Source: Nemertoderma westbladi
Taxonomy: Eukaryota; Animalia; Xenacoelomorpha
NCBI GenBank assembly: GCA_032718475.1
Contig: JAUCBJ010000697.1
Span: forward strand, 1 to 64,000
Direction: 5' to 3'
Length of the DNA: 64,000 bases
Of the stretch, positions 33,979 through 59,129 are shown piece after piece; position 1 is the first letter of the stretch; each line of letters begins with the position of its first letter. The translations under genes were made by a program, and so were the position numbers. Under the pieces are notes generated by a model. The model was not told the DNA's origin. It ran no database searches and saw only the letters and a program-made list of their open reading frames with translations.

Positions 33979-34417
33979 AAATTAAGAATAATTAATGCGG
34001 TTAATTTTGACAGGGTGTCAAAATTAAGAATAATTACGGTCAACTTCAACTGGTGGAAGTTGAGAATCCTTCAATACTCTTCAAAAACTCTCTACGTGCT
34101 TGCCAGCACCCACTACGAGGAAACTCTGGTATTTGAGTTGAGACGAAGTCGTGGTTTAATTAATCAACAAACTCGATCTAACCAACTCGTAGTCGGCAGA
34201 TCACATATTTGGAGAGTTGTTAAGAGGGAATGGAAGTATCGATCACACCCATTGATATAATCCAAGTTGAGCCAGGAATCTGGCACGTCGAAGTTGAAGT
34301 ACAAGGAACGAACGTCGGACGATTCAGGATTACCGTTCGGGTGGTCCAAGCTGAGTACAATACCTACGAGGAACTGTTTTATGACATCGCGTATCTAGCT
34401 ATCGACGAGGTGTTACA

Positions 34418-35526
34418 ATGACGACAAATAACGTATCCGATACCGACGAGATGGATCACCACACAGACTCGGAAGCCGACGAGGTACCAAACGTCAAGAA
34501 CATGACCCGTCGGCTAGGGGCTCTCAAAGGCGGAGTAACCCGAGCGTATCAACGGATGGAGAAACAACTCAAGGGAGTCAAAAACCCCCTCAATGAGGTA
34601 CAAACTCAGCTCCAAAGTATCCGAAATATCCTACAGCGGTACGAAAGAATGATACAGGCGTACCAAGAGCTCGTTCCCTCCACTGATCAGGAAAACTACC
34701 CCAAGTTGGAAGAACACGTTGTACATCTAGATGGGTTCCGCAAACAACACCGGAGGACCCTCAGCCTTGTGAGAGGCTATGAAGAACAGTATTACAAGAG
34801 GGCTGAAAGAACAGACGCGGAATCAGTACGATCCTCCAGCATCAGGACAGCAGTACATCGAAAGAGAACGGGGTCCGCTAGAAATCAGCACTCCAGCGCT
34901 AGGAGCGAGATATCCGGCTCAGCGCACAGTTCTCAAGGGGGGCCGCCACTCCGAGACCAACTGCGAGAACGGAAGGCATTAGCCCTCAAAGCTCGGATGG
35001 AAGATGAGTATATTCAACTGCAAGCCGAGCAAGATATATTAGCCGCCGAAATGCAAAAACGGGAGGCCGAACAAGAGGTCGAACGGCGGGCCGAGCAACA
35101 TAGACAGGAGGCTGAACAACGTGAACGAGAGGCCAGACAAGAGATCGAACAACGTAAATGGGAAGCAGAAATGCGTAAACAACACGCCGAGGCCCAAGCA
35201 ATTCTCACCCACAAAAAGAATGCGGATATTGCGAAACTCGCGGAATACGAAGCCGCACTTATAGAACGAGATATTCAACTATACGAGGACTGGGAAAGGG
35301 ATATAGATCAGGAATATGAACCAATCCCGGTACCGGAATTAGAGAAGTCACTTTCACCAACAGCGGCGAAACTTCCGAAACCCGAGATCCCGCCTACCAT
35401 ACAGTCTACCTTATCGGCACAAGCACCGGTGTTCCATCTCCCACCGGTTACGCTTAAAAATGAGGAACCGTATTTCCCATCCAACCCCACAGCAACGAGT
35501 GTACCCAAGTACGAGCCTGAAAGGGA
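34418..35526 (+). pseudogene. Gag N-terminus truncated by the duplication breakpoint
   Basis: Matches the 43163 ORF up to PKYEPERD, then switches to sequence from 28129. Confidence 0.9.
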
Positions 35527-38900: not shown

Positions 38901-40807
38901 CCACTCCTAGTCTTATTACTAAGTTACTAAGCCTACTAACCACTCCTAGTCTTATTACTAAGTTACTAAGCGTACTAACCACTCCTAGTCTTATTAATAA
39001 GTTACTAAGCCTACTAACCACTCCTATTCTTATTACTAAGTTACTAAGCCTACTAACCACTCCTAGTCTTATTACTAAGTTACTAAGCCTACTAACCACT
39101 CCTAGTCTTATTACTAAGTTACTAAGCCTACTAACCACTCCTAGTCTTATTACTAAGTTACTAAGCCTACTAACCACTCCTAGTCTTATTACTAAGTTAC
39201 TAAGCCTACCAACCACTCCTAGTCTTATTACTAAGTTACTAAGCCTACTAACCATTCCTAGTCTTATTACTAAGTTACTAAATCCTACTAACCACTCCTC
39301 GTCGTATTACTAAGTTACTAAGCCTACTAACCACTCCTAGTCTTATTACTAAGTTACTAAGCCTACTAACCACTCCTATTCTTATTACAAAGTTACTAAA
39401 CCTACTAACCACTCCTATTCTTATTACTAAGTTACTAAGCCTACTAACCATTCCTAGTCTTATTACTAAGTTACTAAGCGTACTAACCACTCCTAGTCTT
39501 ATTAATAAGTTACTAAGCCTACTAACCACTCCTAGTCTTAGTACTAAGTTACTAAACCTACTAACCACTCCTAGTCTTATTACTAAGTTACTAAGCGTAC
39601 TAACCACTCCTAGTCTTATTAATAAGTTACTAAGCGTACTAACCACTCCTAGTCTTATTAATAAGTTACTAAGCCTACTAACCACTCCTAGTCTTATTAC
39701 TAAGTTACTAAGCCTACTAACCACTCCTAGTCTTATTACTAAGTTACTAAGCCTACTAACCACTCCTAGTCTTATTACTAAGTTACTAAGCCTACTAACC
39801 ACTCCTAGTCTTATTACTAAGTTACTAAGCCTACCAACCACTCCTAGTCTTATTACTAAGTTACTAAGCCTACTAACCATTCCAAGTCTTATTACTAAGT
39901 TACTAAATCCTACTAACCACTCCTCGTCGTATTACTAAGTTACTAAGCCTACTAACCACTCCTAGTCTTATTACTAAGTTACTAAGCCTACTAACCACTC
40001 CTATTCTTATTACTAAGTTACTAAACCTACTAACCACTCCTATTCTTATTACTAAGTTACTAAGCCTACTAACCATTCCTAGTCGTATTACTAAGTTACT
40101 AAGCCTACTAACCACACCTCGTCGTAATACTAAGTTAATAAGCCTACTAACCATTCCTTGTCTTATTACTAAGTTACTAAGCCTACTAACCAATCCTTGT
40201 CTTATTACTAAGTTAATAAGCATACTAACCACTCCTAGTCTTATTACTAAGTTAATAAGCATACTAACCACTCCTAGTCTTATTACTAAGTTACTAAGCC
40301 TACTAACCACTCCTAGTCTTATTACTAAGTTACTAAGCCTACTAACCACACCTCGTCGTAATACTAAGTTAATAAGCCTACTAACCACTCCTAGTCTTAT
40401 TACTAAGTTACTAAGCCTACTCACCACTCCTAGTCTTATTACTAAGTTACTAAGCCTACTAACCACTCCTAGTCTTATTACTAAGTTACTAAGCCTACTA
40501 ACCACTCCTAGTCTTATTACTAAGTTACTAAGCCTACTAACCACTCCTAGTCTTATTACTAAGTTACTAAGCCTACTAACCACACCTAGTCTTATTACTA
40601 AGTTACTAAGCCTACTCACCACTCCTAGTCTTATTACTAAGTTACTAAGCCTACTAACCACTCCTAGTCTTATTACTAAGTTACTAAGCCTACTAACCAC
40701 TCCTAGTCTTATTACTAAGTTACTAAGCCTACTAACCACTCCTAGTCTTATTACTAAGTTACTAAGCCTACTAACCACACCTCGTCGTAATACTAAGTTA
40801 ATAAGCC
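35947..40807. repeat. 39-bp satellite, block 2 (with ~1445-bp internal expansion)
   Basis: Same variant order as block 1 plus a repeated sub-block (ORFs 37226-37810 and 38671-39255 are identical). Confidence 0.97.
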
Positions 40808-42723
40808 TGTTCGCGGTATTTCAACTTTCCATAACGCGAGTTGAATATTTTTGTATTTTATTAAAATTGATTATTCCGATATTACTACTGGGTGCGGGAC
40901 CATGGGTTTTGGGCACATTCAATAAACTGGGGGCGATTTATGGGCGAACTTTGGGGCAACTTACAGGGTACGGGAATAATTTCATAGTTATAAGGGCCAG
41001 GGGGGGATGGAAAATGCAAGCAGTATTCAGGTTAGCCTGAGTACTATTAGGCCCTGGCCAACTTCCTGCTGCCTGTAGGGGTGGATTTGGTAATGCGCCA
41101 GGCCTAAAGGACAAGGACTGCCCTTAGCGGTCCCTGGCCAACAGCAGCCATTACGAGACTGAAAAGAATTCGGACCGCTGACTGCTTGTGTCAGGGATTT
41201 GCGACGAGAAACGACGGCCCCTTAGTAGCCAAGCCGTTCTGGTTCTCGATGATCGAACCCTTTGGGGTTCGTGAGGGGTGGAGCGGACACGCGAACGGGT
41301 GGCCAACTAACGACTGCCCCCTGAGCTAAGCCATACTGGTTCTCGATGACCGATCCCTTCGGGGTTCGTGAGGGGTGGGACGGACATGCGAAAGGGCTGG
41401 CCACAGGACGGGTTCGACGAGGACTGCCCTTAGCGGTCTCTGGTCAACGGCAGCTATTACGAGACTGAAAAGAACTCGGAACGCTGACTGCTTGTGTCAG
41501 GGATTTGCGACGGGAAACGACAGCCCCTTAGTAGCCAAGCCGTTCTGGTTCTCGATGATCGAACCCTTCGGGGTTCGTGAGGGGTGGAGCGGACACGCGA
41601 ACGGGTGGCCGACTAACGACTGCCCCCTGAGCTAAGCCGTACTGGTTCTCGATGACCGATCCCTTCGGGGTTCGCGAGGGGTGGGACGGACATGCGAAAG
41701 GGCTGGCCACAGGACGGGTTCGACGAGGACTGCCCTTAGCGGTCTCTGGTCAACGGCAGCTATTACGAGACTGAAAAGAACTCGGAACGCTGACTGCTTG
41801 TACCGGGATCTGCGACGGGAACCGACGACAGACCCCTTAGCCAAGCCGTACTGGTTCTCGATGATCGTTCCCTTCGGGGTTTGTGAGGGGTGGAACGGAC
41901 ACGCGATGGGGTCGAAAGACAAAGGACTAGACTCTACTGGCCTACCGACTGTTCGGAGCAGTTTCTCGGCTGCCGAAGCGACTACGAGCCTGAAAGGGAC
42001 TCGGAAAGCCTAGGTGGTTGGGTTTCTGCGATGAACCGACGGACCCCTAGCCAAGCCGTTCTGGTTCTCGATGATCGTTCCCTTCGGGGTTCGTGAGGGG
42101 TGGAACGGACACGCGAACGGGTCCACCGACACGACAGACTCCTAGCTAAGCCGTACTGGTTCTCGATGACCGATCCCTTCGGGGTTCGAGAGGGGCGGTA
42201 CGGATACGCGACAGAGTCTACCGACTGGACCGACCCTTAGCCAAGCCGTGCTGGTTCTCGATGATCGTTCCCTTCGGGGTTCGTGAGGGGTGGAACGGAC
42301 ACGCGACAGGGTCGACCGACACCGACACTACGGCACTAAGACTAGGACCGAGGGAAAATCTGGGGAACATTAGGTAGGCTAAAATCTGAGCGAACAGTGG
42401 GTAATTAAATAATATACTGTAGGGATTTATATTGTCGTGTATAATTATTGTGAATATTTGGTGTATATTGATTTGGGGAAGCCCAAAATTATTCTCAATC
42501 AGGGTTCAACAGGGTTCAATATTGTTGACCAGGTTCAACAGAGTTCAGTTACATTAAAGAGTATATCCAACTAATGCAGCTTTTTCTCAACCGCAACCCT
42601 GCATCTCAGAAATCATTCCTTCTCCAAAATCAATATCCGGTGACTGGCCGGGGCTCAGTGGTCTGTAAAGTCACGTCTCCAGCATCGGCGTTTTTCCCCC
42701 CTGGTGTTGGGATAACGGCAACA
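40808..42723 (+). mobile_element. 5' LTR (copy 2); 3' boundary inferred
   Basis: Abrupt satellite/TGTTCGC junction; near-identical to 54067-55982. Confidence 0.82.
41120..42315 (+). other. Array of 12 structured-RNA modules within the LTR (also at 32376-33570 and 54380-55573)
   Basis: 8 copies of ..CTCGATGA(T/C)CG..CCCTTCGGGG..CG(T/C/A)GAGGGG.. and 4 copies of TACGAG-CTGAAA-CTCGGA hairpins, with complementary but variable closing stems. Confidence 0.8.
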
Positions 42724-42974
42724 AAATTAAGAATAATTAATGCGGTTAATTTTGACAGGGTGTCAAAATTAAGAATAATTACGGTCAACTTCAACTGGTG
42801 GAAGTTGAGAATCCTTCAATACTCTTCAAAAACTCTCTACGTGCTTGCCAGCACCCACTACGAGGAAACTCTGGTATTTGAGTTGAGACGAAGTCGTGGT
42901 TTAATTAATCAACAAACTCGATCTAACCAACTCGTAGTCGGCAGATCACATATTTGGAGAGTTGTTAAGAGGGA

Positions 42975-43166
42975 ATGGAAGTATCGATCACACCCATTGA
43001 TATAATCCAAGTTGAGCCAGGAATCTGGCACGTCGAAGTTGAAGTACAAGGAACGAACGTCGGACGATTCAGGATTACCGTTCGGGTGGTCCAAGCTGAG
43101 TACAATACCTACGAGGAACTGTTTTATGACATCGCGTATCTAGCTATCGACGAGGTGTTACAATGA
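42975..43166 (+). CDS. 63-aa upstream ORF overlapping the gag start (ATGA); also at 34230 and 56234
   Basis: Protein-like beta/alpha pattern; stop overlaps the gag ATG; the one copy-3 substitution I noticed is synonymous in this frame. Confidence 0.45.
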   Translation: MEVSITPIDIIQVEPGIWHVEVEVQGTNVGRFRITVRVVQAEYNTYEELFYDIAYLAIDEVLQ

Positions 43167-46100
43167 CGACAAATAACGTATCCGATACCGACGAGATGGA
43201 TCACCACACAGACTCGGAAGCCGACGAGGTACCAAACGTCAAGAACATGACCCGTCGGCTAGGGGCTCTCAAAGGCGGAGTAACCCGAGCGTATCAACGG
43301 ATGGAGAAACAACTCAAGGGAGTCAAAAACCCCCTCAATGAGGTACAAACTCAGCTCCAAAGTATCCGAAATATCCTACAGCGGTACGAAAGAATGATAC
43401 AGGCGTACCAAGAGCTCGTTCCCTCCACTGATCAGGAAAACTACCCCAAGTTGGAAGAACACGTTGTACATCTAGATGGGTTCCGCAAACAACACCGGAG
43501 GACCCTCAGCCTTGTGAGAGGCTATGAAGAACAGTATTACAAGAGGGCTGAAAGAACAGACGCGGAATCAGTACGATCCTCCAGCATCAGGACAGCAGTA
43601 CATCGAAAGAGAACGGGGTCCGCTAGAAATCAGCACTCCAGCGCTAGGAGCGAGATATCCGGCTCAGCGCACAGTTCTCAAGGGGGGCCGCCACTCCGAG
43701 ACCAACTGCGAGAACGGAAGGCATTAGCCCTCAAAGCTCGGATGGAAGATGAGTATATTCAACTGCAAGCCGAGCAAGATATATTAGCCGCCGAAATGCA
43801 AAAACGGGAGGCCGAACAAGAGGTCGAACGGCGGGCCGAGCAACATAGACAGGAGGCTGAACAACGTGAACGAGAGGCCAGACAAGAGATCGAACAACGT
43901 AAATGGGAAGCAGAAATGCGTAAACAACACGCCGAGGCCCAAGCAATTCTCACCCACAAAAAGAATGCGGATATTGCGAAACTCGCGGAATACGAAGCCG
44001 CACTTATAGAACGAGATATTCAACTATACGAGGACTGGGAAAGGGATATAGATCAGGAATATGAACCAATCCCGGTACCGGAATTAGAGAAGTCACTTTC
44101 ACCAACAGCGGCGAAACTTCCGAAACCCGAGATCCCGCCTACCATACAGTCTACCTTATCGGCACAAGCACCGGTGTTCCATCTCCCACCGGTTACGCTT
44201 AAAAATGAGGAACCGTATTTCCCATCCAACCCCACAGCAACGAGTGTACCCAAGTACGAGCCTGAAAGGGACTCGGAACGGGACGCCACTCCTCGATCCA
44301 ACAACCCGTTCACATCCACACCACAAACCCGTAGTCGCGTCATCATTAAAACTCCACCTACCATTGATCCATCGAGTATGGGAGAGAGTGCCAATAACTA
44401 TAACCCTCCGAACCACTCCAGTTCGGACAACATCGGCATTATCCGGGCATTGGAAAACCGCCTCTCCATGCCCAAGATGGAGATCCGCACCTTCGAAGGA
44501 GATCCCGTCGATTACCTCAGATTCAAGAAACGGTTCTTTGCGCAGATTGGATCAACGGACATAGCCGATGCACAGAAACTGGTATATTTATCGCAATACC
44601 TGGGTGACAAACCACGCCGAATCATCGCTTGTTTTGAGGGAGGTTCTCATGAAGCATACTACGACGCATGGAAAACTCTAGACAAAAGATACAGAAATAC
44701 CGGGACTATAATTAATAAAACTCTAGAGAAACTGATACAAGACGCGGGATCACTAGGGGACCCACAGAACCTCCAGGAATTTTCAGATTCCATGAAGGAT
44801 GCCTACTACACTCTGAAACCCTTAAATAAGGAGGACCAGGTGAACAACATTCTAAACCTCCGACAGATCGCCCGGAAGTTCCCCGGATGGCTGCAAAGTA
44901 AGTGGGCCTATAAATGCGTAGATCTCCGGCACAGACATCCAGATCGAGATCCCAGCTTCCTCGAAATGTCGGCATTCCTGGACGATATCTCCGAAGCCAT
45001 GAATGACTCGATGTTCTCGAAACAGAGTCTCGCCAAGTTGTACGCAATGGAGAGCAATTACCAGAGCAGGGCACCCACTCCAAACCCAAGATTCCGCCCT
45101 ACTCCTGTGAGTGCGATGGCCATCAGTATGGCTGAGGACTCGGATGACGAGGATTACGAGGAACCGACCTTAGCAGAAGAATGGGCATGCTACCTAGCGA
45201 ATTGGACACCCGAAAGGGAAGGCACCACAGCCTCCCCTATATGTCTCTTCTGCGGAGAGAAACATAAGTTGGAATTCTGCGGAAAGTTCCAGTTTGCTGA
45301 ACTCGTCCCACGCTTCGAGGCGATGATGAAACACCGAGGATGCTTCCGGTGTCTTGGAACAGGTCACTACGTTCGGGATTGCGACCAAAGGTCGTGTTGT
45401 GCGGTTTGTAACGACCTACGTCATCACACGCTCCTCCACATCCCCGCGAACTTCGACTTCACTACCCTCCCCTTTCGGATCGAAGCCAAGCGAAGAGGAG
45501 AAACGAACCACGTTTCCAAAGGAACCCGGATTACCCAACGGAGAGAAACCAATCCGTTTAAAATCTCCACCGATAAACCACAAGTAACCAACATTTCAGC
45601 CACGATTAATCTTATAAATCGCCGCTACATGGTCTTCGCAAAGGTAATCCCGGTAAGGATTCAGGGAGTCGGCAAATCCCTGACGATGCTCGCGTTCCTT
45701 GATAACGGGTCTGACGGAACCATCATCGACCGGGATTTCCTCGAGCAACTCGGCCTAGAATATGAACCTTGTAAACGGCCCATACAAACCATCACCGATA
45801 ACAGAGAGGTAGAGTCTGGGGAGGTGCAACTCCAAATGGAAGGAGTAATGAAGGGCTACGAGACGGTCAAGCTAACCATCAAGAACGCCTTGGTACACAC
45901 AGACCTCCGAGTGCGGTTCCGACAATCAGCCGAGTACGCCCCCCTCATACAATTGGACCGAGACGATGTAGATCTGAGGTGTCCACAGTTGGACGTAAAC
46001 CGCATCACCCTACTGATCGGACTTGATACACCGGAATTACACATACCTACCGGAGATGTCGCCCGATCCATAAAGAAAGATGACGGCTTTTACGCTGAAC

Positions 46101-46981
46101 GAACCATAATGGGATGGACCCTCTGCGGCATCAAGGAAGAAACTACTGACACCTATACATATCTTCCTAAATGTCAGATTAAAGAAAATGTAACATCCGT
46201 GGGATATTGCTCAGCTACAGACCTCGATGAGGATTTATTTCTCGAAACCGAGAGAACCCAGCGGGAGATGACCGGATGCTTTAATGTGGAGACCCGAGAG
46301 TTTGCCGAGAAGGACGAGAATCCGTCCGAGGAAGATCAATATTGTACCAACATTTTTGATCAGGCCACGTTCAAAGACGGACATTGGCGCGTGCCCATGC
46401 TTTGGTGGCTAATAAGGTTGTTGATGATAATAATGACGTTGATAACATTGACACCATTAACGGGAGAGCACGGACTAATCTGCCGTAATACCCGGATGGC
46501 AAACGCCTCAGTTGAGTCCCTCACTCCTAACCACTTACTGGGGAGACCCAAAACCCACGTTCTCCCGGAAACCATGTTCCTGGATCCCAACGAGATCGCG
46601 AAACATACAAACTGGAAAAAGGCCCAAGCGTTGGCAGCGCATTGGTGGAGAATTTGGGCCCAGGAGTACCTCATAACCCTCCGGACCAGGAGGAAATGGA
46701 ACAACACCTACCGGAACGTCGCAGTTGGCGACATGGTACTAGTTAAAGAAGATCTCAATGACCGCGTTCACTGGCCTTTGGCGCGGGTCGTGACCATACA
46801 CCCAAGCAAAGACGGACTTGCGAGGACTGTGACGATACGAACGAAATCGGGCCACTACCAACGCCCCATCCAAAAGCTGTGCCTTCTTGAAGGCAATGAT
46901 AGCGGTGACTCTACGAGAGGTGATAAGTTCCCTACTCAAGATCCTGCTGCAGACATCGGTGACAATGACAAATGCGTTTAA
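43163..46981 (+). CDS. BEL/Pao Gag-protease-integrase C-terminal fusion (RT, RNase H and integrase core missing)
   Basis: DUF1759-like (FEGDPVDYLRF, QKLVYLSQYL); three zinc knuckles (CLFCGEKHKLEFC, CFRCLGTGHYVRDC, CAVCNDLRHHTLLH); protease AFLDNGS; DUF5641-like LTPNHLLG..WAQEYL..VGDMVLV..WPLARV..DG..RPIQKLCLL. No YVDD RT motif. Confidence 0.92.
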   Translation: MTTNNVSDTDEMDHHTDSEADEVPNVKNMTRRLGALKGGVTRAYQRMEKQLKGVKNPLNEVQTQLQSIRNILQRYERMIQAYQELVPSTDQENYPKLEEHVVHLDGFRKQHRRTLSLVRGYEEQYYKRAERTDAESVRSSSIRTAVHRKRTGSARNQHSSARSEISGSAHSSQGGPPLRDQLRERKALALKARMEDEYIQLQAEQDILAAEMQKREAEQEVERRAEQHRQEAEQREREARQEIEQRKWEAEMRKQHAEAQAILTHKKNADIAKLAEYEAALIERDIQLYEDWERDIDQEYEPIPVPELEKSLSPTAAKLPKPEIPPTIQSTLSAQAPVFHLPPVTLKNEEPYFPSNPTATSVPKYEPERDSERDATPRSNNPFTSTPQTRSRVIIKTPPTIDPSSMGESANNYNPPNHSSSDNIGIIRALENRLSMPKMEIRTFEGDPVDYLRFKKRFFAQIGSTDIADAQKLVYLSQYLGDKPRRIIACFEGGSHEAYYDAWKTLDKRYRNTGTIINKTLEKLIQDAGSLGDPQNLQEFSDSMKDAYYTLKPLNKEDQVNNILNLRQIARKFPGWLQSKWAYKCVDLRHRHPDRDPSFLEMSAFLDDISEAMNDSMFSKQSLAKLYAMESNYQSRAPTPNPRFRPTPVSAMAISMAEDSDDEDYEEPTLAEEWACYLANWTPEREGTTASPICLFCGEKHKLEFCGKFQFAELVPRFEAMMKHRGCFRCLGTGHYVRDCDQRSCCAVCNDLRHHTLLHIPANFDFTTLPFRIEAKRRGETNHVSKGTRITQRRETNPFKISTDKPQVTNISATINLINRRYMVFAKVIPVRIQGVGKSLTMLAFLDNGSDGTIIDRDFLEQLGLEYEPCKRPIQTITDNREVESGEVQLQMEGVMKGYETVKLTIKNALVHTDLRVRFRQSAEYAPLIQLDRDDVDLRCPQLDVNRITLLIGLDTPELHIPTGDVARSIKKDDGFYAERTIMGWTLCGIKEETTDTYTYLPKCQIKENVTSVGYCSATDLDEDLFLETERTQREMTGCFNVETREFAEKDENPSEEDQYCTNIFDQATFKDGHWRVPMLWWLIRLLMIIMTLITLTPLTGEHGLICRNTRMANASVESLTPNHLLGRPKTHVLPETMFLDPNEIAKHTNWKKAQALAAHWWRIWAQEYLITLRTRRKWNNTYRNVAVGDMVLVKEDLNDRVHWPLARVVTIHPSKDGLARTVTIRTKSGHYQRPIQKLCLLEGNDSGDSTRGDKFPTQDPAADIGDNDKCV

Positions 46982-47249
46982 ACCCTTCTCATCATGTTGA
47001 CAAACTCTTTTTTAACTGTGATTTATCGACAACGAATTATGGACCCCCCTTAAACCAACTGTAACCACGCAATGGTATTTGTGTTTCCTCGTGTGTTATG
47101 TGGAGTCCAGCATCACCCTGCAGATGTTTCGACTGACGCAGGGTCGTTTATGTATTGTTTACCCTGATTTTGGTCATCGGGACCAATGATATTGGATTAT
47201 TGGAAATGGAAAAGATTTGAAGTGGAATTCATTGTATTCATTGCAGTAT

Positions 47250-47690
47250 GTTATGTTGTCCGTTGCGTGTGCAGTTCGGGGCGTAGGCGGTGTAACGAGT
47301 CCAGCTGTAGATCCCGGATTGCCGCGCAACACCCCCTCTATCCCGTTATTCTGGTGGGTCCATGGTGCATCCACATGACTTCGACGATAGAGGGTTTTAT
47401 GTTTCTCAGTCGCGTTATTCTGGTGGGACCGTTACGTGGATTTTGGGGCGTAGGCGGTGTAACGAGTCCAGCTGTAGATCCCAGAATGTTGCGTAACCCC
47501 ATCCCACATGACTTCGTCGACTGAGCTTTATGTTGTTGGGAGTGTTATTCTGGTGGGTCCATGGTGCATCCACGTGACTTCACTCTCGGCGTCTTCATTG
47601 TCCGTTACGTGCGCAGTTTGGGGCGTAGGCGGTGTAACGAGTCCAGCTGTAGATCCCAGATTGCCGCGTAACACCCCTTCCACGACAAAG
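47250..47690 (+). repeat. Three ~170-bp imperfect direct repeats in the inter-ORF region
   Basis: Identical 38-mer GGGGCGTAGGCGGTGTAACGAGTCCAGCTGTAGATCCC at ~47278, 47445 and 47620. Confidence 0.85.
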
Positions 47691-48059
47691 ATTAACCAAA
47701 GAAAATGATTGAATATAGTTGGAAACGATGAAAAGGATCAGACAACTCTACTATAAACCTGAATGATGACGCGTATGCTGATGAAAATGTAATGATGCGC
47801 ACCCTGGTGCTGCGCTTATAACCAATGATGATAGCCGGGGGGCTATAAACCCAATGATGATGTGGAAATAAATAAATGTGAAAAAATGGTGGAAATAAAT
47901 GTGATGAAATATATGTGGAAATAAATGAAATGTGATGGAATAATAATGAAATGAAAAAAGACAAAAAAAAGGTATAAAAAAGTCTAAAGAAAAGAATTGG
48001 AAAAAAGAAAGGACAAAAACGTCATAAAAAAACTGGTTGGATATTAATGTATAGTTATA

Positions 48060-51000
48060 CTACTACTACTACTAGGTCGAGCGAACTCGGACAGTGGAAA
48101 TGAGATCCTTCCAGGCTTCCCGATTCTCCATAGTTGTCGCAATTTCGTTTCTCCCAAGTTCAGTATCCCTTTCAAGTTGATCTATATATGTTATGGCAGG
48201 TCGTCCACGACTACGCTTTCCATGAGTTGGTTGCCAGAGAAGTAGATCTGGTATGACCTCGTCTTTACTTCGCCAGCAGTGCCCACTGAATCTTAATCTG
48301 CGTTCACGGAGGGTGGTTGATACAGGTGGTATTGTACCATAAAGCTCGGCGTTTGTCATGTGTTGTCTCCAGCTGATGTTTAGGGCTGCCCTTAGTAGTC
48401 TTGTGTAGCAACCATCAATTCGTTGTTCAAGTGATTTAGTCAGTGTCCAGGTCTCACCCCCGTATAAAAATACACTTTCCACTGTGGCTCGAAAGAACTT
48501 AGTCTTCAGGTGCCTGGAGAGATCTGATTTCCAGATGGTATCCATTTTTGATAGAGCTACCCAAGCCTTTGCTTTCCTAACTTCTATGTCCTTTTTGCTA
48601 CTCTCTATCCATGATCCAAGGTACTGGAAGTCATCGACCTTCCTTAGTTGATTATTATCAATGGTTGTCAAGTTTCCATCAACATTAAAGGTCATGAATT
48701 CGGTCTTGGTAGCATTTATGTGCAATCCAACCTCCTTAGCAGCCCTCTCCACTTTATTTAGTAGAAGCTGTGCATCTGCTAGCGTATTAGAGAGCAGGGC
48801 GATGTCATCCGCAAAGTCGGTGTCTGTGACTGTAGTTGCCGGATATCTACTACTTCTGCGTTCTTGAAGTGTGAATCCCAGATCTTCACCTGTTGTGGCC
48901 GTCCTCATTGCGTAATCCAGCACAATTACAAATAGTAATGGTGCTAATGTGTCACCTTGCAGTACGCCAGCCAGGATTGAGAAAAACTCAGTTTCACCAT
49001 CTGGTGAGAGTACCTGCGCTTCTGTGTCACAATATAACAATCCAATGCCAGCAACAATTACTTCTGGTATTCCATAAGCTCTTAGGATTTCAAGCATTTT
49101 ACCTCTATGGATGGAGTCGAATGCCTTCTTGAAGTCCACAAAAGTCATGACTGCGGGGAGATTCTTTGACTTAATTCCTTCAATTAGTCTCCGTAGTGCA
49201 AGTATCTGAGCTATTGTTGATCTACTTGGTCGAAATCCGTTTTGGCTCTTACGCAGTAGTTTCTCTATGTGAGGCCTAATCCTATATAGAATCATTTTAT
49301 TGTATATTTTGGCAGCTACCACAAGCAGACAGATCCCACGATAGTTTGTTGGTATGCCGAGGTCTCCTTTCTTGGGGAGAGGCTTTAGTTGACCTTTAGT
49401 CCAAATTGGTGGTGGCTTTTCCCCTTTTAACATCCGGTTGCAAACATTCAATAATGGTCTATTTAGCACTCCGGTTTTCCATACCTCCGCTGGGATTTCA
49501 TCTAATCCACTCGCTTTATTATTGGACATGCTTTTAATGCTTCTTTGGAGTTCGGCAGGTGTGAAGTCCCCTGTTTATATAGGTAGTGTCTTGTCATATA
49601 TTTTCCTTGTAGGGCTGACCTCGATGTTTGGTGGCTGCCCAAGCAAGTTGCTGAAGTGATTTTTCCACTTCCCAACACGTTCTTCAGGACTATCGGCTTT
49701 GAGGCGCCCCTTTGCACAACTTTTCCGACCAGATACCTCATTTACAGTTTGCCAGGTAAGTCTTGATTGTTGCTGTATGTGAGCAGTTGTAATTGCTTCA
49801 GTTTTATCCTGTATGTACTTTTCCTGGCTGATATTGTAGGCCAATTTAAGATCGTCCTTAGCTTTCTCAACCTTGTTAATGTTTTCGGTTGTTGGTTGTT
49901 CGGTTTTAACTTTGTAGGCTATCTTAAGATCTTCTCTCTTACAAGTAACCTCAGAGTTTTGCCATGGTACATACTGTTTTCGTTTAGGTTTCTGGGGGAT
50001 ATGCCTCTTAGCTGATTCCTTGTGGGCTGTTATTATATTCTGGTATATTGAATCGGTGGATTGGTCTTTATCTATTGACTGAAGTGCTTCAAAGCGGTTT
50101 TGAACTTCTACTGTATAAGCATCCTTTACAGCATTGTCAGTTCTGAGTTTCTCCCAGTCATAGTTGATCCGCCTGCTTGTCCTGGGTTTGCTGGCTCTCA
50201 AACTGAGTCTGATCTCTGCAGTCACAATTCTGTGGTCCGAACCAATTAGGTTGAACGAGCTGTATGCCTCGCAGTTGATCATGCTATTTCTCCACTTTTT
50301 GTTTATAAGGATGTAATCCAGTTGTGCTTTGGTTCCATTAGGGTATTGAAAGGTCCATAGCTTCCCCTTACTCTTTTCGAATGTGTTGTTTGTTGGTATC
50401 AATTCACATTCTTCCATTAGGTCTAAAAGTAAGTACCCATTTCTGCTAGAACAGGTGTTATAGGTGTAACCCTTGATGTCTTCTGGGCCAATTTGCGCAT
50501 TCAGGTCACCAGCAATGACTCTAACATTGTGTTTCGGGATGTCCTTAATAAGTCCAGTCAGTTCTTCATAAAACTTGACTGCTTGTTCTGGCTCTGATGC
50601 ATTGGTTGGACTGTAGCAACATATAACTGTTGTCTTGGGATTCCCATCAAATGTTGCGATCATAACCCTGGAATTTATAGATTCGATGTTGTTTAGGGTC
50701 TTAAGTGCAAATGGGCTTAGCAGAATTCCTACTCCACCAATTGATGCATTGGCCGAGTTTCTTACTGCTGAGCTTGTTACTAACATCCATCCATTCCCAA
50801 TGTCATTGTACTTCATGGCAGTGTCTTCATGACAAATCCGATGTTCTTGGATGCAGATGATGTCGATGTTATATTCCATTGCCAGAGCGACCATGTCACC
50901 CTGTTTGCTCTGTGATTTCAGCGTGCGTGCGTTCATTGTAGCAATATTTAGTGTCTTTTTACATTTCAACAGGTTGGTTCTTCTTTCTTCTCTGTCTTCT

Positions 51001-51111
51001 GTTCCAGTAGCCAATTTATCGACCCCAGCCTGGTGTACCACTGAGGGACGCGGTCCTTGTTGACCCGGGCGACGACCGAGCCGGTATTTCTCCTGGAGGG
51101 TTCTCATACTC
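48060..51111 (-). mobile_element. RTE-clade LINE nested antisense in the LTR element
   Basis: 13-bp TSD ATGTATAGTTATA (48047-48059 and 51112-51124), (TAG)n tail and a single APE+RT frame. Confidence 0.95.
48072..51107 (-). pseudogene. RTE APE endonuclease-reverse transcriptase ORF with one premature TAA (49575-49577)
   Basis: ATMNART, CIQEH, GDLNA, LDYIL, SDH; GVLQGDTLAP, FADDI. ORFs 49575-51113 and 48072-49529 are in the same frame. Confidence 0.93.
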
Positions 51112-51300
51112 ATGTATAGTTATAGTTATAGTAACTGTAAATGCTGAATGTATTAGCAATAAGATGATAGATGCCTATATAGCAATGTTATTAATAAACT
51201 GAATTAAATAAAAAACTGAATTATTCTGCTATCGCTATAGTTTCAGACTTTCTGGACTTATAATTAACTGATCTAATTTGTAACGGATATAATCGTAAAT

Positions 51301-53748
51301 ATGGACCCAAATCGCCAAATTATCGGCGAATTACGTAACACGATAGATCTACTGGAATATTCGCAACCCGGATCCCCTGACTTTGATACAAATTGGAGCA
51401 CCCTGCTAAATGAGAACGTGCGAGTCATTAAATTCACCGGGCGAGAGGGACCGGATTCTAAGAATCTACGAGCCCTCCGGTTAGCCGATGCTAGTACGAG
51501 ACTGAAAAGAACTCGGAACGCAAAGGCAACCGGGGGGGACGATTCGTCATTTTGGGAAACATTCCGGCAGAGCGTCTACAGATCCCGATGTTTGATCTAC
51601 GACAATGAGGGAAACGCGACGCCCACCTCGAAAGCGATTACGTTGGCGAGATGTCAAAGTTTCGTCGACGACAAGAGTACGTACCTCGCCCACTGGGGAA
51701 ACCTGTCGGAGTGTACGGCGACGCTTCGAGAGGAACGCGTATCGATTATCCAGAACCGAGACGACTACCAGGAAAAGTACGGGGCGAAAGAATACGGTCG
51801 ATCCTTAGTCATCGTCCTCGGAACCCTGGACGGTTTGGTACTGGTGTGCCGAATATTCCCGACACCCAGACAGGAAGTGCAGGCAGCCGGAGCGATCTGG
51901 TTGCTGCCTCCGGAAATCCAAAAGATCCTCTTCGATTTCGACGTCATTAAAATCGGGTCGGATATCAAGGCGGATGTCCGGAACGACTACGCGAACGCTC
52001 CTGCAGGAAGAAACCGACGAGACGACCTCAACGCCCTTAGCCATTGCATCGACACTCAAACGCTACTAGCCTGGTTACGATTCGCCGAGTTCATGCGAGG
52101 ATTCCAAGAGGTGAGACCGACGAAATCCGGGATCGGCTACCTCGCTGTGCTAAACGGCGGTATCGACTTCAAACCCCAGAAATTCCGGGACTATAATAAA
52201 ATATACGGTGGATACCCGGGAATAGAAATAAAGAGCGAGCGAGAGGGTCGATGGAAGGACGTTGATCGGAAGTGGACGATACACCAAAGGTGGGAGAATC
52301 CCGATCAACGGAACTACGTTTACGTCGTTATGGAGTGCTACACCGTCGCTAAGTTTATCTGTAAAACTCTCGATAACCTTATTACGGCGGTCCCCCTTTC
52401 CTTCGTCGACTACGACTGGAATGAGGTCATACACCACGCGTTCAAAGCGGTCGAGAACATCGCACCGGGAGAGACTAAAACGCTCGCTGTTATCGATTCC
52501 TGGGACGAGAGCGGACCTTACGACATCCCTACGATTACCGAACTTCTCAGTGCGGAGGAGCCTCTGATCTCTTCGGAAGGAGAAGAGATATGGCTAAACG
52601 AGGGTGTTCTACTCTCCACCCCGAAGCGACAACTCGAGCCGGAGGCCGCGTATGGACCGGCCGCCAAACGGGTTGCCTCGGCCGAACCGATGAAGAGAGC
52701 AGGCGTTTACACCCCACGCGGCTCCGGTAGCCCCGCGAGGGAGGTAGCTACTACAGCTGCATTGAGCGACTTCGGCGACATATGCCAACGGTTATCCCCG
52801 TATCCTTTCCCGGGTGGCGAAGATTGGTCGTCGGAGATTCCGAGTACCAGCCACCAACGGACCCGCTCAGCGATACTGGTCGAGGAGGGCCCCAGCGATG
52901 CGCCGACCCCCGACGATCTCCTCGGTATCCCTCCGTCTAAAACCCCGGCACCTCTTCGCCGACCAGCGGTGGCTACTACACCCGCCGTTCCTCAGGACCC
53001 TATGCGACTAACCCGTTGGTACGCCGAGCAAACTGAATGGATCCACCGCCAGAAACGGTCATCCGAGTTGAGACCAGCGGGATACAAAGAAGGTTATCGG
53101 AGCGAGAACCTACTACGCAAAAGCCTAGCATTCCGCGGGCTACCGACCACCGCGAATATTCCGAAGAGCGACCGACGACTCGAGTATCACGTCGGCGTCC
53201 CGATTCCGATATTTCCAGGTCGAGAGATGCAGTTGGAGGTATGCGGCGACTGTGGTTCGGAGCAGTGCCCATGCGGTAGAAGGAATCGGGTTACCGATTC
53301 ATGCCTCCAGCTCCTTGTGATACTCTATTGCCCATACTGCGCGACATCGGGCCACGACGTTTCCGTCTGTCCGATCCTTTATAACCTCTGCACCACGTGC
53401 GGTTTCCGTGGACATTCCTCTAGCCCCCGCTGCTATATCAAATGTCCAACCAAAGACATTACCGCTATGGGAAATATGGTCATGTTTGAAACATACGCAA
53501 ACAGCCACTTAAAGACCAAGGTTCGGAGAAACGCTCGGAATATTGCGCAGGAGATGGCGTGCGGGTATTTCTCCTTCCCGGAACGCCTCCACACGTCGGC
53601 CACGCTACCTTTCCATTACGTGGATCTGCTACTGAGCGCCGGATTATTCGGTCCATTTGAAGTCATTAGACGATTATACTCGTATAAAGAGGAGTTCGGT
53701 GACGGAGAATGGTTCCTAGAGGCACGCAAATCTGAGTTGGAAAGATGA
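51301..53748 (+). CDS. Accessory ORF2: DEDDy 3'-5' exonuclease-like domain, low-complexity linker and CCHC zinc knuckles
   Basis: ExoI-like LIYDNEG; ExoII-like LPPEIQKILFDFDVIKIGSDIKAD; CIDTQ; ExoIII-like W...YVVME; knuckles CPYCATSGHDVSVC and CTTCGFRGHSSSPRC. Confidence 0.75.
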   Translation: MDPNRQIIGELRNTIDLLEYSQPGSPDFDTNWSTLLNENVRVIKFTGREGPDSKNLRALRLADASTRLKRTRNAKATGGDDSSFWETFRQSVYRSRCLIYDNEGNATPTSKAITLARCQSFVDDKSTYLAHWGNLSECTATLREERVSIIQNRDDYQEKYGAKEYGRSLVIVLGTLDGLVLVCRIFPTPRQEVQAAGAIWLLPPEIQKILFDFDVIKIGSDIKADVRNDYANAPAGRNRRDDLNALSHCIDTQTLLAWLRFAEFMRGFQEVRPTKSGIGYLAVLNGGIDFKPQKFRDYNKIYGGYPGIEIKSEREGRWKDVDRKWTIHQRWENPDQRNYVYVVMECYTVAKFICKTLDNLITAVPLSFVDYDWNEVIHHAFKAVENIAPGETKTLAVIDSWDESGPYDIPTITELLSAEEPLISSEGEEIWLNEGVLLSTPKRQLEPEAAYGPAAKRVASAEPMKRAGVYTPRGSGSPAREVATTAALSDFGDICQRLSPYPFPGGEDWSSEIPSTSHQRTRSAILVEEGPSDAPTPDDLLGIPPSKTPAPLRRPAVATTPAVPQDPMRLTRWYAEQTEWIHRQKRSSELRPAGYKEGYRSENLLRKSLAFRGLPTTANIPKSDRRLEYHVGVPIPIFPGREMQLEVCGDCGSEQCPCGRRNRVTDSCLQLLVILYCPYCATSGHDVSVCPILYNLCTTCGFRGHSSSPRCYIKCPTKDITAMGNMVMFETYANSHLKTKVRRNARNIAQEMACGYFSFPERLHTSATLPFHYVDLLLSAGLFGPFEVIRRLYSYKEEFGDGEWFLEARKSELER

Positions 53749-54057
53749 ACCGACATGATCCCTATGCCTTCGAAAGGAAGAGCCGCCAGGAGACAAGCCG
53801 AAGCGTTACTCACAATGGATGTTGACGCTCCTCTACCAGCCATAGCGATCGATGAGAGTCGACGGGCGAAGAGACGAAAGGCGTATCAGAGAAAGAAATA
53901 GTGGATCGGGATATTCCAGGAACATTTATCGAACATTTATTTTTATACAAACTCTAGGACAAATTAATTAAAAACTATGCAATATTAAATTTGGGTTTTT
54001 TATATTGGGAATGACCTACGCAAACTCAATCTACCGACAGACTTCACGAAGGTCATT

Positions 54058-54065
54058 GGGGGGGA
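54058..54065 (+). other. Polypurine tract
   Basis: GGGGGGGA one base upstream of the 3' LTR TG. Confidence 0.85.
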
Positions 54066-54066
54066 C

Positions 54067-55982
54067 TGTTCGCGGTATTTCAACTTTCCATAACGCGAGT
54101 TGAATATTTTTGTATTTTATTAAAATTGATTATTCCGATATTACTACTGGGTGCGGGACCATGGGTTTTGGGCACATTCAATAAACTGGGGGCGATTTAT
54201 GGGCGAACTTTGGGGCAACTTACAGGGTACGGGAATAATTTCATAGTTATAAGGGCCAGGGGGGGATGGAAAATGCAAGCAGTATTCAGGTTAGCCTGAG
54301 TACTATTAGGCCCTGGCCAACTTCCTGCTGCCTGTAGGGGTGGATTTGGTAATGCGCCAGGCCTAAAGGACAAGGACTGCCCTTAGCGGTCCCTGGCCAA
54401 CAGCAGCCATTACGAGACTGAAAAGAACTCGGACCGCTGACTGCTTGTGTCAGGGATTTGCGACGGGAAACGACGGCCCCTTAGTAGCCAAGCCGTTCTG
54501 GTTCTCGATGATCGAACCCTTCGGGGTTCGTGAGGGGTGGAGCGGACACGCGAACGGGTGGCCAACTAACGACTGCCCCCTGAGCTAAGCCGTACTGGTT
54601 CTCGATGACCGATCCCTTCGGGGTTCGTGAGGGGTGGGACGGACATGCGAAAGGGCTGGCCACAGGACGGGTTCGACGAGGACTGCCCTTAGCGGTCTCT
54701 GGTCAACGGCAGCTATTACGAGACTGAAAAGAACTCGGAACGCTGACTGCTTGTGTCAGGGATTTGCGACGGGAAACGACAGCCCCTTAGTAGCCAAGCC
54801 GTTCTGGTTCTCGATGATCGAACCCTTCGGGGTTCGTGAGGGGTGGAGCGTACACGCGAACGGGTGGCCGACTAACGACTGCCCCCTGAGCTAAGCCGTA
54901 CTGGTTCTCGGTGACCGATCCCTTCGGGGTTCGCGAGGGGTGGGACGGACATGCGAAAGGGCTGGCCACAGGACGGGTTCGACGAGGACTGCCCTTAGCG
55001 GTCTCTGGTCAACGGCAGCTATTACGAGACTGAAAAGAACTCGGAACGCTGACTGCTTGTACCGGGATCTGCGACGGGAACCGACGACAGACCCCTTAGC
55101 CAAGCCGTACTGGTTCTCGATGATCGTTCCCTTCGGGGTTCGTGAGGGGTGGAACGGACACGCGATGGGGTCGAAAGACAAAGGACTAGACTCTACTGGC
55201 CTACCGACTGTTCGGAGCAGTTTCTCGGCTGCCGAAGCGACTACGAGCCTGAAAGGGACTCGGAAAGCCTAGGTGGTTGGGTTTCTGCGATGAACCGACG
55301 GACCCCTAGCCAAGCCGTTCTGGTTCTCGATGATCGTTCCCTTCGGGGTTCGTGAGGGGTGGAACGGACACGCGAACGGGTCCACCGACACGACAGACTC
55401 CTAGCTAAGCCGTACTGGTTCTCGATGACCGATCCCTTCGGGGTTCGAGAGGGGCGGTACGGATACGCGACAGAGTCTACCGACTGGACCGACCCTTAGC
55501 CAAGCCGTGCTGGTTCTCGATGATCGTTCCCTTCGGGGTTCGTGAGGGGTGGAACGGACACGCGACAGGGTCGACCGACACCGACACTACGGCACTAAGA
55601 CTAGGACCGAGGGAAAATCTGGGGAACATTAGGTAGGCTAAAATCTGAGCGAACAGTGGGTAATTAAATAATATACTGTAGGGATTTATATTGTCGTGTA
55701 TAATTATTGTGAATATTTGGTTTATATTGATTTGGGGAAGCCCAAAATTATTCTCAATCAGGGTTCAACAGGGTTCAATATTGTTGACCAGGTTCAACAG
55801 AGTTCAGTTACATTAAAGAGTATATCCAACTAATGCAGCTTTTTCTCAACCGCAACCCTGCATCTCAGAAATCATTCCTTCTCCAAAATCAATATCCGGT
55901 GACTGGCCGGGGCTCAGTGGTCTGTAAAGTCACGTCTCCAGCATCGGCGTTTTTCCCCCCTGGTGTTGGGATAACGGCAACA
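54067..55982 (+). mobile_element. 3' LTR (copy 3), shared as 5' LTR of a tandem second unit
   Basis: Preceded by the PPT and followed by the same leader and gag as LTR copy 2. Confidence 0.85.
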
Positions 55983-56421
55983 AAATTAAGAATAATTAAT
56001 GCGGTTAATTTTGACAGGGTGTCAAAATTAAGAATAATTACGGTCAACTTCAACTGGTGGAAGTTGAGAATCCTTCAATACTCTTCAAAAACTCTCTACG
56101 TGCTTGCCAGCACCCACTACGAGGAAACTCTGGTATTTGAGTTGAGACGAAGTCGTGGTTTAATTAATCAACAAACTCGATCTAACCAACTCGTAGTCGG
56201 CAGATCACATATTTGGAGAGTTGTTAACAGGGAATGGAAGTATCGATTACACCCATTGATATAATCCAAGTTGAGCCAGGAATCTGGCACGTCGAAGTTG
56301 AAGTACAAGGAACGAACGTCGGACGATTCAGGATTACCGTTCGGGTGGTCCAAGCTGAGTACAATACCTACGAGGAACTGTTTTATGACATCGCGTATCT
56401 AGCTATCGACGAGGTGTTACA

Positions 56422-59129
56422 ATGACGACAAATAACGTATCCGATACCGACGAGATGGATCACCACACAGACTCGGAAGCCGACGAGGTACCAAACGTCA
56501 AGAACATGACCCGTCGGCTAGGGGCTCTCAAAGGCGGAGTAACCCGAGCGTATCAACGGATGGAGAAACAACTCAAGGGAGTCAAAAACCCCCTCAATGA
56601 GGTACAAACTCAGCTCCAAAGTATCCGAAATATCCTACAGCGGTACGAAAGAATGATACAGGCGTACCAAGAGCTCGTTCCCTCCACTGATCAGGAAAAC
56701 TACCCCAAGTTGGAAGAACACGTTGTACATCTAGATGGGTTCCGCAAACAACACCGGAGGACCCTCAGCCTTGTGAGAGGCTATGAAGAACAGTATTACA
56801 AGAGGGCTGAAAGAACAGACGCGGAATCAGTACGATCCTCCAGCATCAGGACAGCAGTACATCGAAAGAGAACGGGGTCCGCTAGAAATCAGCACTCCAG
56901 CGCTAGGAGCGAGATATCCGGCTCAGCGCACAGTTCTCAAGGGGGGCCGCCACTCCGAGACCAACTGCGAGAACGGAAGGCATTAGCCCTCAAAGCTCGG
57001 ATGGAAGATGAGTATATTCAACTGCAAGCCGAGCAAGATATATTAGCCGCCGAAATGCAAAAACGGGAGGCCGAACAAGAGGTCGAACGGCGGGCCGAGC
57101 AACATAGACAGGAGGCTGAACAACGTGAACGAGAGGCCAGACAAGAGATCGAACAACGTAAATGGGAAGCAGAAATGCGTAAACAACACGCCGAGGCCCA
57201 AGCAATTCTCACCCACAAAAAGAATGCGGATATTGCGAAACTCGCGGAATACGAAGCCGCACTTATAGAACGAGATATTCAACTATACGAGGACTGGGAA
57301 AGGGATATAGATCAGGAATATGAACCAATCCCGGTACCGGAATTAGAGAAGTCACTTTCACCAACAGCGGCGAAACTTCCGAAACCCGAGATCCCGCCTA
57401 CCATACAGTCTACCTTATCGGCACAAGCACCGGTGTTCCATCTCCCACCGGTTACGCTTAAAAATGAGGAACCGTATTTCCCATCCAACCCCACAGCAAC
57501 GAGTGTACCCAAGTACGAGCCTGAAAGGGACTCGGAACGGGACGCCACTCCTCGATCCAACAACCCGTTCACATCCACACCACAAACCCGTAGTCGCGTC
57601 ATCATTAAAACTCCACCTACCATTGATCCATCGAGTATGGGAGAGAGTGCCAATAACTATAACCCTCCGAACCACTCCAGTTCGGACAACATCGGCATTA
57701 TCCGGGCATTGGAAAACCGCCTCTCCATGCCCAAGATGGAGATCCGCACCTTCGAAGGAGATCCCGTCGATTACCTCAGATTCAAGAAACGGTTCTTTGC
57801 GCAGATTGGATCAACGGACATAGCCGATGCACAGAAACTGGTATATTTATCGCAATACCTGGGTGACAAACCACGCCGAATCATCGCTTGTTTTGAGGGA
57901 GGTTCTCATGAAGCATACTACGACGCATGGAAAACTCTAGACAAAAGATACGGAAATACCGGGACTATAATTAATAAAACTCTAGAGAAACTGATACAAG
58001 ACGCGGGATCACTAGGGGACCCACAGAACCTCCAGGAATTTTCAGATTCCATGAAGGATGCCTACTACACTCTGAAACCCTTAAATAAGGAGGACCAGGT
58101 GAACAACATTCTAAACCTCCGACAGATCGCCCGGAAGTTCCCCGGATGGCTGCAAAGTAAGTGGGCCTATAAATGCGTAGATCTCCGGCACAGACATCCA
58201 GATCGAGATCCCAGCTTCCTCGAAATGTCGGCATTCCTGGACGATATCTCCGAAGCCATGAATGACTCGATGTTCTCGAAACAGAGTCTCGCCAAGTTGG
58301 ACGCAATGGAGAGCAATTACCAGAGCAGGGCACCCACTCCAAACCCAAGATTCCGCCCTACTCCTGTGAGTGCGATGGCCATCAGTATGGCTGAGGACTC
58401 GGATGACGAGGATTACGAGGAACCGACCTTAGCAGAAGAATGGGCATGCTACCTAGCGAATTGGGCACCCGAAAGGGAAGGCACCACAGCCTCCCCTATA
58501 TGTCTCTTCTGCGGAGAGAAACATAAGTTGGAATTCTGCGGAAAGTTCCAGTTTGCTGAACTCGTCCCACGCTTCGAGGCGATGATGAAACACCGAGGAT
58601 GCTTCCGGTGTCTTGGAACAGGTCACTACGTTCGGGATTGCGACCAAAGGTCGTGTTGTGCGGTTTGTAACGACCTACGTCATCACACGCTCCTCCACAT
58701 CCCCGCGAACTTCGACTTCACTACCCTCCCCTTTCGGATCGAAGCCAAGCGAAGAGGAGAAACGAACCACGTTTCCAAAGGAACCCGGATTACCCAACGG
58801 AGAGAAACCAATCCGTTTAAAATCTCCACCGATAAACCACAAGTAACCAACATTTCAGCCACGATTAATCTTATAAATCGCCGCTACATGGTCTTCGCAA
58901 AGGTAATCCCGGTAAGGATTCAGGGAGTCGGCAAATCCCTGACGACGCTCGCGTTCCTTGATAATGGGTCTGACGGAACCATCATCGACCGGGATTTCCT
59001 CGAGCAACTCGGCCTAGAATAGGAACCTTGTAAACGGCCCATACAAACCATCACCGATAACAGAGAGGTAGAGTCTGGGGAGGTGCAACTCCAAATGGAA
59101 GGAGTAATGAAGGGCTACGAGACGGTCAA
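56422..59129 (+). pseudogene. Gag-protease of the truncated tandem unit
   Basis: Four amino-acid differences from the 43163 ORF; TAT>TAG at 59020-59022; homology ends at 59129 and satellite resumes. Confidence 0.9.

Follow-up and report, generated by a model that had tools for sequence, protein, structure and literature searches.

Organization of the element

Positions 1 to 64,000 of contig JAUCBJ010000697.1 from the xenacoelomorph Nemertoderma westbladi (assembly GCA_032718475.1, forward strand), a 64,000-nucleotide (nt) stretch referred to here as the window, contain at 40808-55982 a young, BEL/Pao-derived long terminal repeat (LTR) retrotransposon without reverse transcriptase (RT). The element carries two long open reading frames, ORF1 and ORF2, the second of which encodes a predicted nuclease with zinc knuckles, together with hairpin arrays in its LTRs and between the ORFs and copies of one hairpin core inside both coding sequences. 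An earlier reading made from the letters alone (the sequence-only reading) had placed a young element with LTRs at this position, and this was borne out, as the element is bounded by a direct pair of LTRs of 1,916 nt each that differ by 8 substitutions. The 5' LTR (40808-42723, forward strand, TGTT..AACA) and the 3' LTR (54067-55982, forward strand), which doubles as the 5' LTR of a next tandem copy, have the TG..CA ends of BEL/Pao members, and a polypurine tract (PPT; 54052-54066, forward strand) directly precedes the second LTR, as in that group. No LTR in the window is followed by host flank from which a target-site duplication could be read.

Within the LTR, TATAA is present at 40989 and 42440, AATAAA at 40921 and ATTAAA at 42553. 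With these motifs, the hairpins of the LTR may lie in the 5' leader or in the 3' untranslated part of the transcript. The stretch at 42724-42812 is without a canonical primer-binding site by the LTR, with the first TGG 73 nt downstream of the 5' LTR, and contains an AT-rich 17-mer in two copies as well as a palindrome of 27 nt (42746-42772). Priming of the LTR end by the element itself was rejected, since 9 of 30 shuffles gave a duplex as good, and a tRNA scan of the element found none.

ORF1 (43163-46981, forward strand; 1,272 amino acids, aa) encodes Gag with DUF1759 (E = 2.7e-14) and zinc knuckles, a protease, and an integrase tail with DUF5641 (E = 3.7e-29). The protease match, to Asp_protease_2, has an E-value of 5.9e-5 and 24.1 bits, slightly below the cut-off of 24.3. 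All 11 relatives of ORF1 are BEL-type polyproteins, with 24% identity at the best score. They align up to 46399 and resume at 46418, so that around 950-1,000 aa are gone at an in-frame junction near 46400-46417. The missing part was not recovered elsewhere, since tblastn with the 11 BEL relatives found no piece of RT, RNase H or integrase core in any frame of 40808-59129, and a Pfam-type domain scan of ORF1 returned no RT family. An RT-less Gag-protease-integrase ORF retaining the C-terminal integrase part, as the sequence-only reading had described it, is thus what the domain matches and the tblastn result show, and the loss of RT is established for the copy at 40808-55982 alone. This copy is a BEL-derived non-autonomous element and not an autonomous member of the group.

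ORF2 and its protein family

ORF2 (51301-53748, forward strand; 815 aa) comprises an exonuclease domain at about aa 85-365, a low-complexity linker and three Cys/His zinc clusters at aa 648-705. As a single sequence it had no match in Pfam, PDB or word-indexed protein searches, and its single-sequence structure models reached pLDDT values of 33 and 32. A full HMMER search retrieved nine relatives at E <= 0.001, all from contigs of 2-19 kb in ENA, JGI, NCBI and Logan, which are unnamed or 'hypothetical' and are without an informative Pfam family; P0012, P0014, P0019, P0018 and P0021 come from contigs of 9-19 kb and are 20-25% identical to ORF2. The N-terminal exonuclease-like and C-terminal triple Cys/His domains are both present in at least six of the nine. 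Locus searches with ORF2, P0018, P0021, P0013 (viral contigs) and P0012 (prokaryote genomes) confirmed nothing. In the relative P0013 the zinc domain is duplicated and ExoI is degenerate (D-F-K).

The profile of this family matches the knuckles of Lin28 (E = 5e-5) and EXD2 (E = 7.4e-4), with a weak knuckle match to Trypanosoma brucei RNase D (TbRND, 7C45; E = 0.1). A profile of the N-terminal domain had nine weak matches, which include WRN (0.15 and 0.16), EXD2 (0.31), Egalitarian (0.61) and four similar-scoring unrelated proteins, and the alignments of WRN and EXD2 are collinear across ExoI-III. In the atlas, PF01612 accounts for 25 of 30 ORF2 matches (at 0.92), and a lead at 0.82 points to trypanosome RNase D. 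An ungapped scan with the ExoI blocks of seven relatives places ExoI at D101/E103 with a score of 11.4, against -0.4 for the next position, and 2 of 200 shuffles attained this score. A dead ExoI, suggested by MAFFT alignments, was overturned by the same scan. About 50 aa are inserted after ExoI; ExoII corresponds to D225 and ExoIII to Y341/E345, where the change of D to E is also found in several relatives.

By their profiles, ORF2 and its nine relatives constitute an unnamed WRN/EXD2/Egalitarian-like family of DEDDy-type exonucleases with zinc knuckles, and ORF2 is predicted to be a catalytically competent nuclease of this type with RNA-binding knuckles. Since it keeps D101, E103, D225 and E345, it looks more like an active nuclease than a pure adaptor. 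The extra exonuclease-like/zinc-knuckle ORF noticed at first sight is therefore upheld by relatives, profiles and acidic residues alike. The analogy with Egalitarian drawn at the same time is weakened, as ORF2 keeps its catalytic acidic residues and no LOTUS-like Egl domain appeared among its Pfam or PDB matches.

The hairpin comb of the LTRs

Each LTR is packed with 12 hairpins, in agreement with the number counted in the sequence-only reading, eight of type A and four of type B. In the 5' LTR this comb occupies 41118-42314 (forward strand) in the order B A A B A A B A B' A A A, and in the 3' LTR it lies at 54377-55573. Type A modules are 82-88 nt long with a cUUCGg loop and a centre that can be drawn as kink-turn (k-turn)-like or as a 5-nt bulge; all 24 covariance-model matches lie within the three LTR copies. 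Type B modules are about 85-95 nt long, with a bulged-G-like loop and a GAAA tetraloop, and A and B have in common a basal A-GC/GC-GA internal loop. Both cUUCGg and GAAA are stable RNA tetraloops. Single B modules have z-scores of -2.2 to -3.8 in the sense direction and of -0.3 to -2.3 in reverse.

Against the consensus and rules for k-turns set out in PMC5579392, module A fits the sequence consensus of the standard form in 24 of 24 copies, with a 3-nt bulge, tandem GA/GA pairs and C-G at -1b/-1n. The bulge is GAU (GGU in one copy), 3b:3n is U:U in five of the eight modules, 4b:4n is C:G, and two of the four pairs of the helix in the k-turn register are G-U. Folding of k-turns induced by protein is known (PMC5689011, PMC6298567), and it is quite possible, if short of probable, that a host protein of the 15.5K/L7Ae type binds module A.

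Identity with known ribozymes, small nucleolar RNAs (snoRNAs), selenocysteine insertion (SECIS) elements or tRNAs was rejected, as there was no Rfam or tRNA match: Rfam returned nothing at E <= 5 over 40700-56100, and further searches with the modules gave matches at chance level only (E >= 2.5). In particular, A was discarded as a box C/D snoRNA, a class with RUGAUGA/CUGA boxes, G:C at 4b:4n and guide regions, since it has C:G at 4b:4n, lacks guide regions and is not matched by any Rfam model. The same features bear on a processing system, in which ORF2 would trim the transcript down to protein-capped hairpins and yield small RNAs of 80-95 nt, acting as units like small nucleolar ribonucleoproteins (snoRNPs) or as decoys for 15.5K or silencing factors. 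Such a system would suit the self-contained rods with short linkers between them, whose longest unbroken helix is 8 bp, and a nuclease that looks intact and combines the two domains found in the guide-RNA-trimming trypanosome RNase D (PMC7797062); box C/D RNAs are moreover stabilised by binding of 15.5K (PMC5579392). However, module A departs from box C/D RNAs, which have G:C at 4b:4n (PMC5689011), it has neither guide regions nor an Rfam match, and a 3'-5' exonuclease alone is unable to make 5' ends, so that we consider processing quite improbable.

The inter-ORF array and the B core within the ORFs

An additional array, overlooked by the earlier reading of the window, lies between the ORFs at 47259-47676 (forward strand) and consists of three C and three D modules, one D bearing a C at its apex. 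A 38-nt apical core of C is invariant in all three copies on varying stems, in which two-sided changes are found at 3 of 25 pairs, and the D cores likewise sit on different stems. The array has a z-score of -4.5 in sense and of -1.9 in reverse, its changes appear in part compensatory, and the C and D loops might form a weak candidate pairing of only -3 to -5 kcal/mol. Further downstream, at 47750-47910, there are two TATAAA motifs (47752, 47844) and four RTGATGA motifs (47763, 47825, 47854, 47901), which may possibly be an internal promoter of ORF2 or box-C-like repeats.

Copies of one module inside both ORFs, as the sequence-only reading had proposed, were found for the core of B, which has 15 matches in the window and none in 100 shuffles. 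In ORF1 the copy at 44253-44278 (forward strand) is identical over 24 nt to the B' variant, is read as KYEPERDSER and has a weak local stem; in ORF2 the copy at 51472-51540 (forward strand), with its core at 51493-51518, is identical over 27 nt to B2/B3, is read as STRLKRTRNA and sits on a long unrelated stem. By chance, such copies would be expected at 8e-10 (ORF1) and 2e-11 (ORF2). The reading frame differs between the two, with codon position 2 for ORF1 and codon position 1 for ORF2, and the stem in ORF2 is the lowest-energy one of 237 ORF2 windows, with z-scores of -4.7 to -5.2. At the bulged-G position, both ORF copies have AGUA, B1-3 have AUUA and B' has ACUA, which makes two distinct changes of a single base.

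The core of 24-27 nt is thus carried by four non-homologous stems, those of B1-3, B', ORF1 and ORF2. The hairpins look selected at the level of RNA, above all B, with this core in two reading frames, and the C modules of the additional array. An invariant core that has moved onto stems of independent origin, at coding as well as non-coding sites, would be the signature of a protein-binding site.

An alternative is that the parts are independent. The hairpins would then be cis elements recognised by Gag or host proteins and serving export, transport or second-cistron translation, while ORF2 would be an unrelated accessory nuclease drawn from a DEDDy pool shared among retroelements, with a role for instance in 3'-end processing or counter-silencing. 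LTR elements of rotifers acquired DEDDy-type ORF3s on at least two occasions, and Terminons have them too; the description of these rotifer elements mentions neither hairpin arrays nor a demonstrated function (PMC5408684). The four distinct module classes also suggest several ligands, and ORF2 has kept its catalytic residues. On the other hand, a B core about 190 nt into the ORF2 coding sequence, with another in ORF1, would suit a feedback by a protein of the element, and ORF2 has Lin28-like knuckles. On balance we find this independence of parts rather unlikely, and ORF2 is tentatively proposed as the ligand of B.

Other copies and genomic setting

The element lies in a 39-bp C-rich satellite that surrounds all three copies in the window, with blocks at 28552-32064, 35947-40808 and 59143-61588. 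Downstream, the tandem copy that shares the 3' LTR retains an internal region at 55983-59129 (forward strand), in which ORF1 ends early at 59022, and is cut off by the satellite. Upstream, a second truncated copy (32064-35526, forward strand) includes an LTR and the start of ORF1 and breaks inside the B core of ORF1; after the break at 35526, 420 nt of unrelated AT-rich DNA follow. The left flanks of this copy and of the complete one (31957-32063 and 40701-40807) are identical over 107 nt, and a single insertion was therefore probably duplicated. The identity of the LTRs may in part reflect local duplication.

A long interspersed nuclear element (LINE) of 3.07 kb is nested at 48047-51120 on the reverse strand, flanked by a 13-nt target duplication, with ORFs for an APE endonuclease (49575-51113) and an RT (48072-49529); it is particular to this copy. 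The family was surveyed with contigs of four runs over 42730-54360, with the best 40, 15 and 24 entries considered out of 769 substitutions, 547 joints and 3,737 loose ends, respectively. All 30 bins of this interval are covered in three runs. The joint 48046->51121 occurs in runs X1, X3 and X4, from three studies, and the LINE is therefore not part of the family. Since one X4 contig, from another individual, runs across the LINE site from the 3' region of ORF1 into ORF2, ORF2 belongs to the element. Among the listed differences in ORF1, a subset selected by support, third codon positions hold 16 of 29 (P = 0.013). Depth, which is not copy number, dips over 46222-46609 in X1 and X3, and one X3 contig departs from the window sequence upstream of 46518.

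A pattern scan of metagenome DNA (13 of 64 parts) gave 121 loci with a pattern that proved too loose, since neither the LTR nor ORF1 or ORF2 had a match among the 120 loci screened, and the corresponding scan of viral contigs gave 0 matches. Elsewhere in the window, which is rich in satellites, a ceramide-synthase-like gene (homeodomain plus TLC domain) appears in intron-poor pieces at 11538-12026 and 15866-16522 and indicates an animal host. Open frames of 139-413 aa at 5603-7227 and 8651-9943, three of which were scanned with no Pfam match and one of which has a Cys/His cluster, are possibly another element with accessory ORFs.

A proposed model for the handling of the element's RNA

The modules very probably function at the level of RNA, a case that we infer to be strong for B and C and moderate for A. 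Several results weigh against this and against a joint role with ORF2. In a nearest-neighbour model with no k-turn term, each of the 24 copies of A is less stable as a k-turn than with a 5-nt bulge, by 4.2-7.5 kcal/mol, so that the idea of an L7Ae-family protein on A, raised in the sequence-only reading, agrees with the consensus and has the less stable fold against it. The covariance check put forward with it did not favour A, as covariation among the eight modules was not above that of shuffles (223 of 500 shuffles reach it; the basal stem was partly misaligned). The whole LTR array, at -488.6 compared with -491.5 +/- 6.9, is no better than 15 shuffles, and single A modules have z-scores of -0.2 to -2.7. 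Folding of 81-90 nt around the B copy of ORF1 reveals no stem of note (z = -0.6), whereas 4 of 98 control windows from the LINE reach z <= -3, with a best value of -4.6. The near-identity of each ORF copy to one LTR variant could be due to nothing more than template switching or conversion. Furthermore, depth in X4 (again not copy number) is about 80-285 over ORF2 and 400 over the integrase tail compared with 23-40 over Gag-protease, and the Gag-protease pieces of this run diverge by 8-11% compared with 2-3% for ORF2. ORF2 may thus travel with other 5' halves, of which these depths, the dips and the departing X3 contig are hints only.

In part, the same results lend themselves to an explanation at the level of DNA, with the comb as a U3 enhancer array or a tandem-duplicated GC-rich palindrome that template switching carried into the ORFs, and CGAG-N11-CTCG as a dimeric DNA-binding site. 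The comb does have tandem periods of 306 nt and 95 nt, the stability of the array and the covariation of A are no higher than in shuffles, and the TATAA at 42440 would place the comb in U3. The strand asymmetry and G-U-rich stems, the two-sided changes in C, and the unrelated stem beneath the core within the ORF2 coding sequence all speak for RNA instead, and make repeats acting as DNA, or neutral ones, improbable in our estimate.

The analysis shows the anatomy, the repeats, the ORF2 family with its conserved acidic residues and, for this copy, that pol is missing. To a coupling of the hairpins and ORF2 into one RNA-handling system of a helper-dependent element we give just under an even chance. 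The proposal of the sequence-only reading that ORF2 and/or host L7Ae-family proteins bind the hairpins to export, localise, protect or package the RNA is thus supported in part. In such a system, the sense RNA with its four repeated hairpin classes would offer multivalent protein-binding sites, the knuckles of ORF2 would read the B core, and host 15.5K might fold A. The nuclease of ORF2 would trim or guard the ends of the element's own RNA during assembly into a particle copied by the Pol of a helper element, for which the multivalent RNA would compete. The purpose would be protection or packaging rather than export. A stronger version, in which a BEL/Pao lineage has a self-contained circuit, with a Lin28-like-knuckle nuclease reading B in both genes and at four sites of the LTR, and eight k-turns recruiting 15.5K that caps or kinks the RNA, in a Rev/RRE-like or snoRNP-mimicking manner that is not known from retrotransposons, appears unlikely.

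The function of nuclease ORFs in retroelements has been open since their description in rotifers, and the ORF described here is accompanied by possible targets in cis, which are short enough for synthesis and lie within the coding sequence of ORF2 itself, making the question directly testable. The element would bring accessory nucleases to BEL/Pao, together with an unnamed protein family, whose nine relatives lack an informative Pfam match, and four RNA motifs that Rfam does not contain. A transposon that handles its own RNA in this way would be unusual; if the k-turn reading were true, a transposon would have co-opted the snoRNP/U4 protein 15.5K at eight sites.

Comparison with known systems

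Among the papers listed in searches of the open literature, none was on a nuclease ORF in BEL/Pao or on k-turn/bulged-G arrays in LTRs, and Repbase, Dfam, subscription journals and supplements may hold the family. DEDDy-type extra ORFs are already known from Gypsy-type elements of rotifers, and it is the BEL/Pao case and the arrays for which no report was found. For BEL/Pao (Belpaoviridae; taxonomy in PMC12440569), the extra ORFs on record in the sources consulted are envelope-like, with roo, Tas, Cer7 and Anakin as env-bearing members, and LTRs are reported at 0.2-1.2 kb (PMC3118150, PMC7642597). The present element shares with them TG..CA LTRs, a PPT, the Gag-protease-integrase order, DUF1759 and DUF5641, and an extra ORF downstream of pol. 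It differs in its 1.9-kb LTR, in the missing RT, RNase H and integrase core, in an extra ORF that encodes a nuclease and not an envelope, and in its hairpin arrays.

With respect to the protein, Vesta and Juno of bdelloid rotifers and the Terminons likewise have a DEDDy-type exonuclease as accessory ORF, with an altered acidic motif and a proposed role in 3'-end processing. By their descriptions, these are RT-bearing elements, namely LTR lineages of a retrovirus-like kind and Penelope-like elements (PMC5408684, PMC6431247), whereas the element described here belongs to BEL/Pao and has RNA arrays and, as a domain apart, three zinc clusters. ORF2 also resembles TbRND, which acts on RNA, in joining an exonuclease of RNase D type to zinc fingers at the C terminus, although TbRND is a cellular single gene (PMC7797062). 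A further parallel is the Egalitarian-BicD system with the I-factor localisation signal (ILS), with an exonuclease-fold domain on one side and bulged stem-loops in a retroelement coding region on the other. Egl is a host protein that binds stem-loops through LOTUS-like domains and its exonuclease domain, with catalytic residues that are dispensable (PMC13186709), while ORF2 has knuckles and intact acidic residues.

On the RNA side, the modules recall the retroviral constitutive transport element (CTE) and the Rev response element (RRE) with Rev, as structured cis elements with or without an element-encoded partner (PMC3856414), although they have no sequence or structure match to these. Structured RNA in the LTR of non-autonomous elements is also found in Cassandra, Helenus, Ajax and the retrozymes. 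In those, single 5S/tRNA-derived or hammerhead units are present and no protein is encoded (PMC10886601, PMC6431247), in contrast to the 12 units without an Rfam or tRNA match and the two long ORFs of the N. westbladi element.

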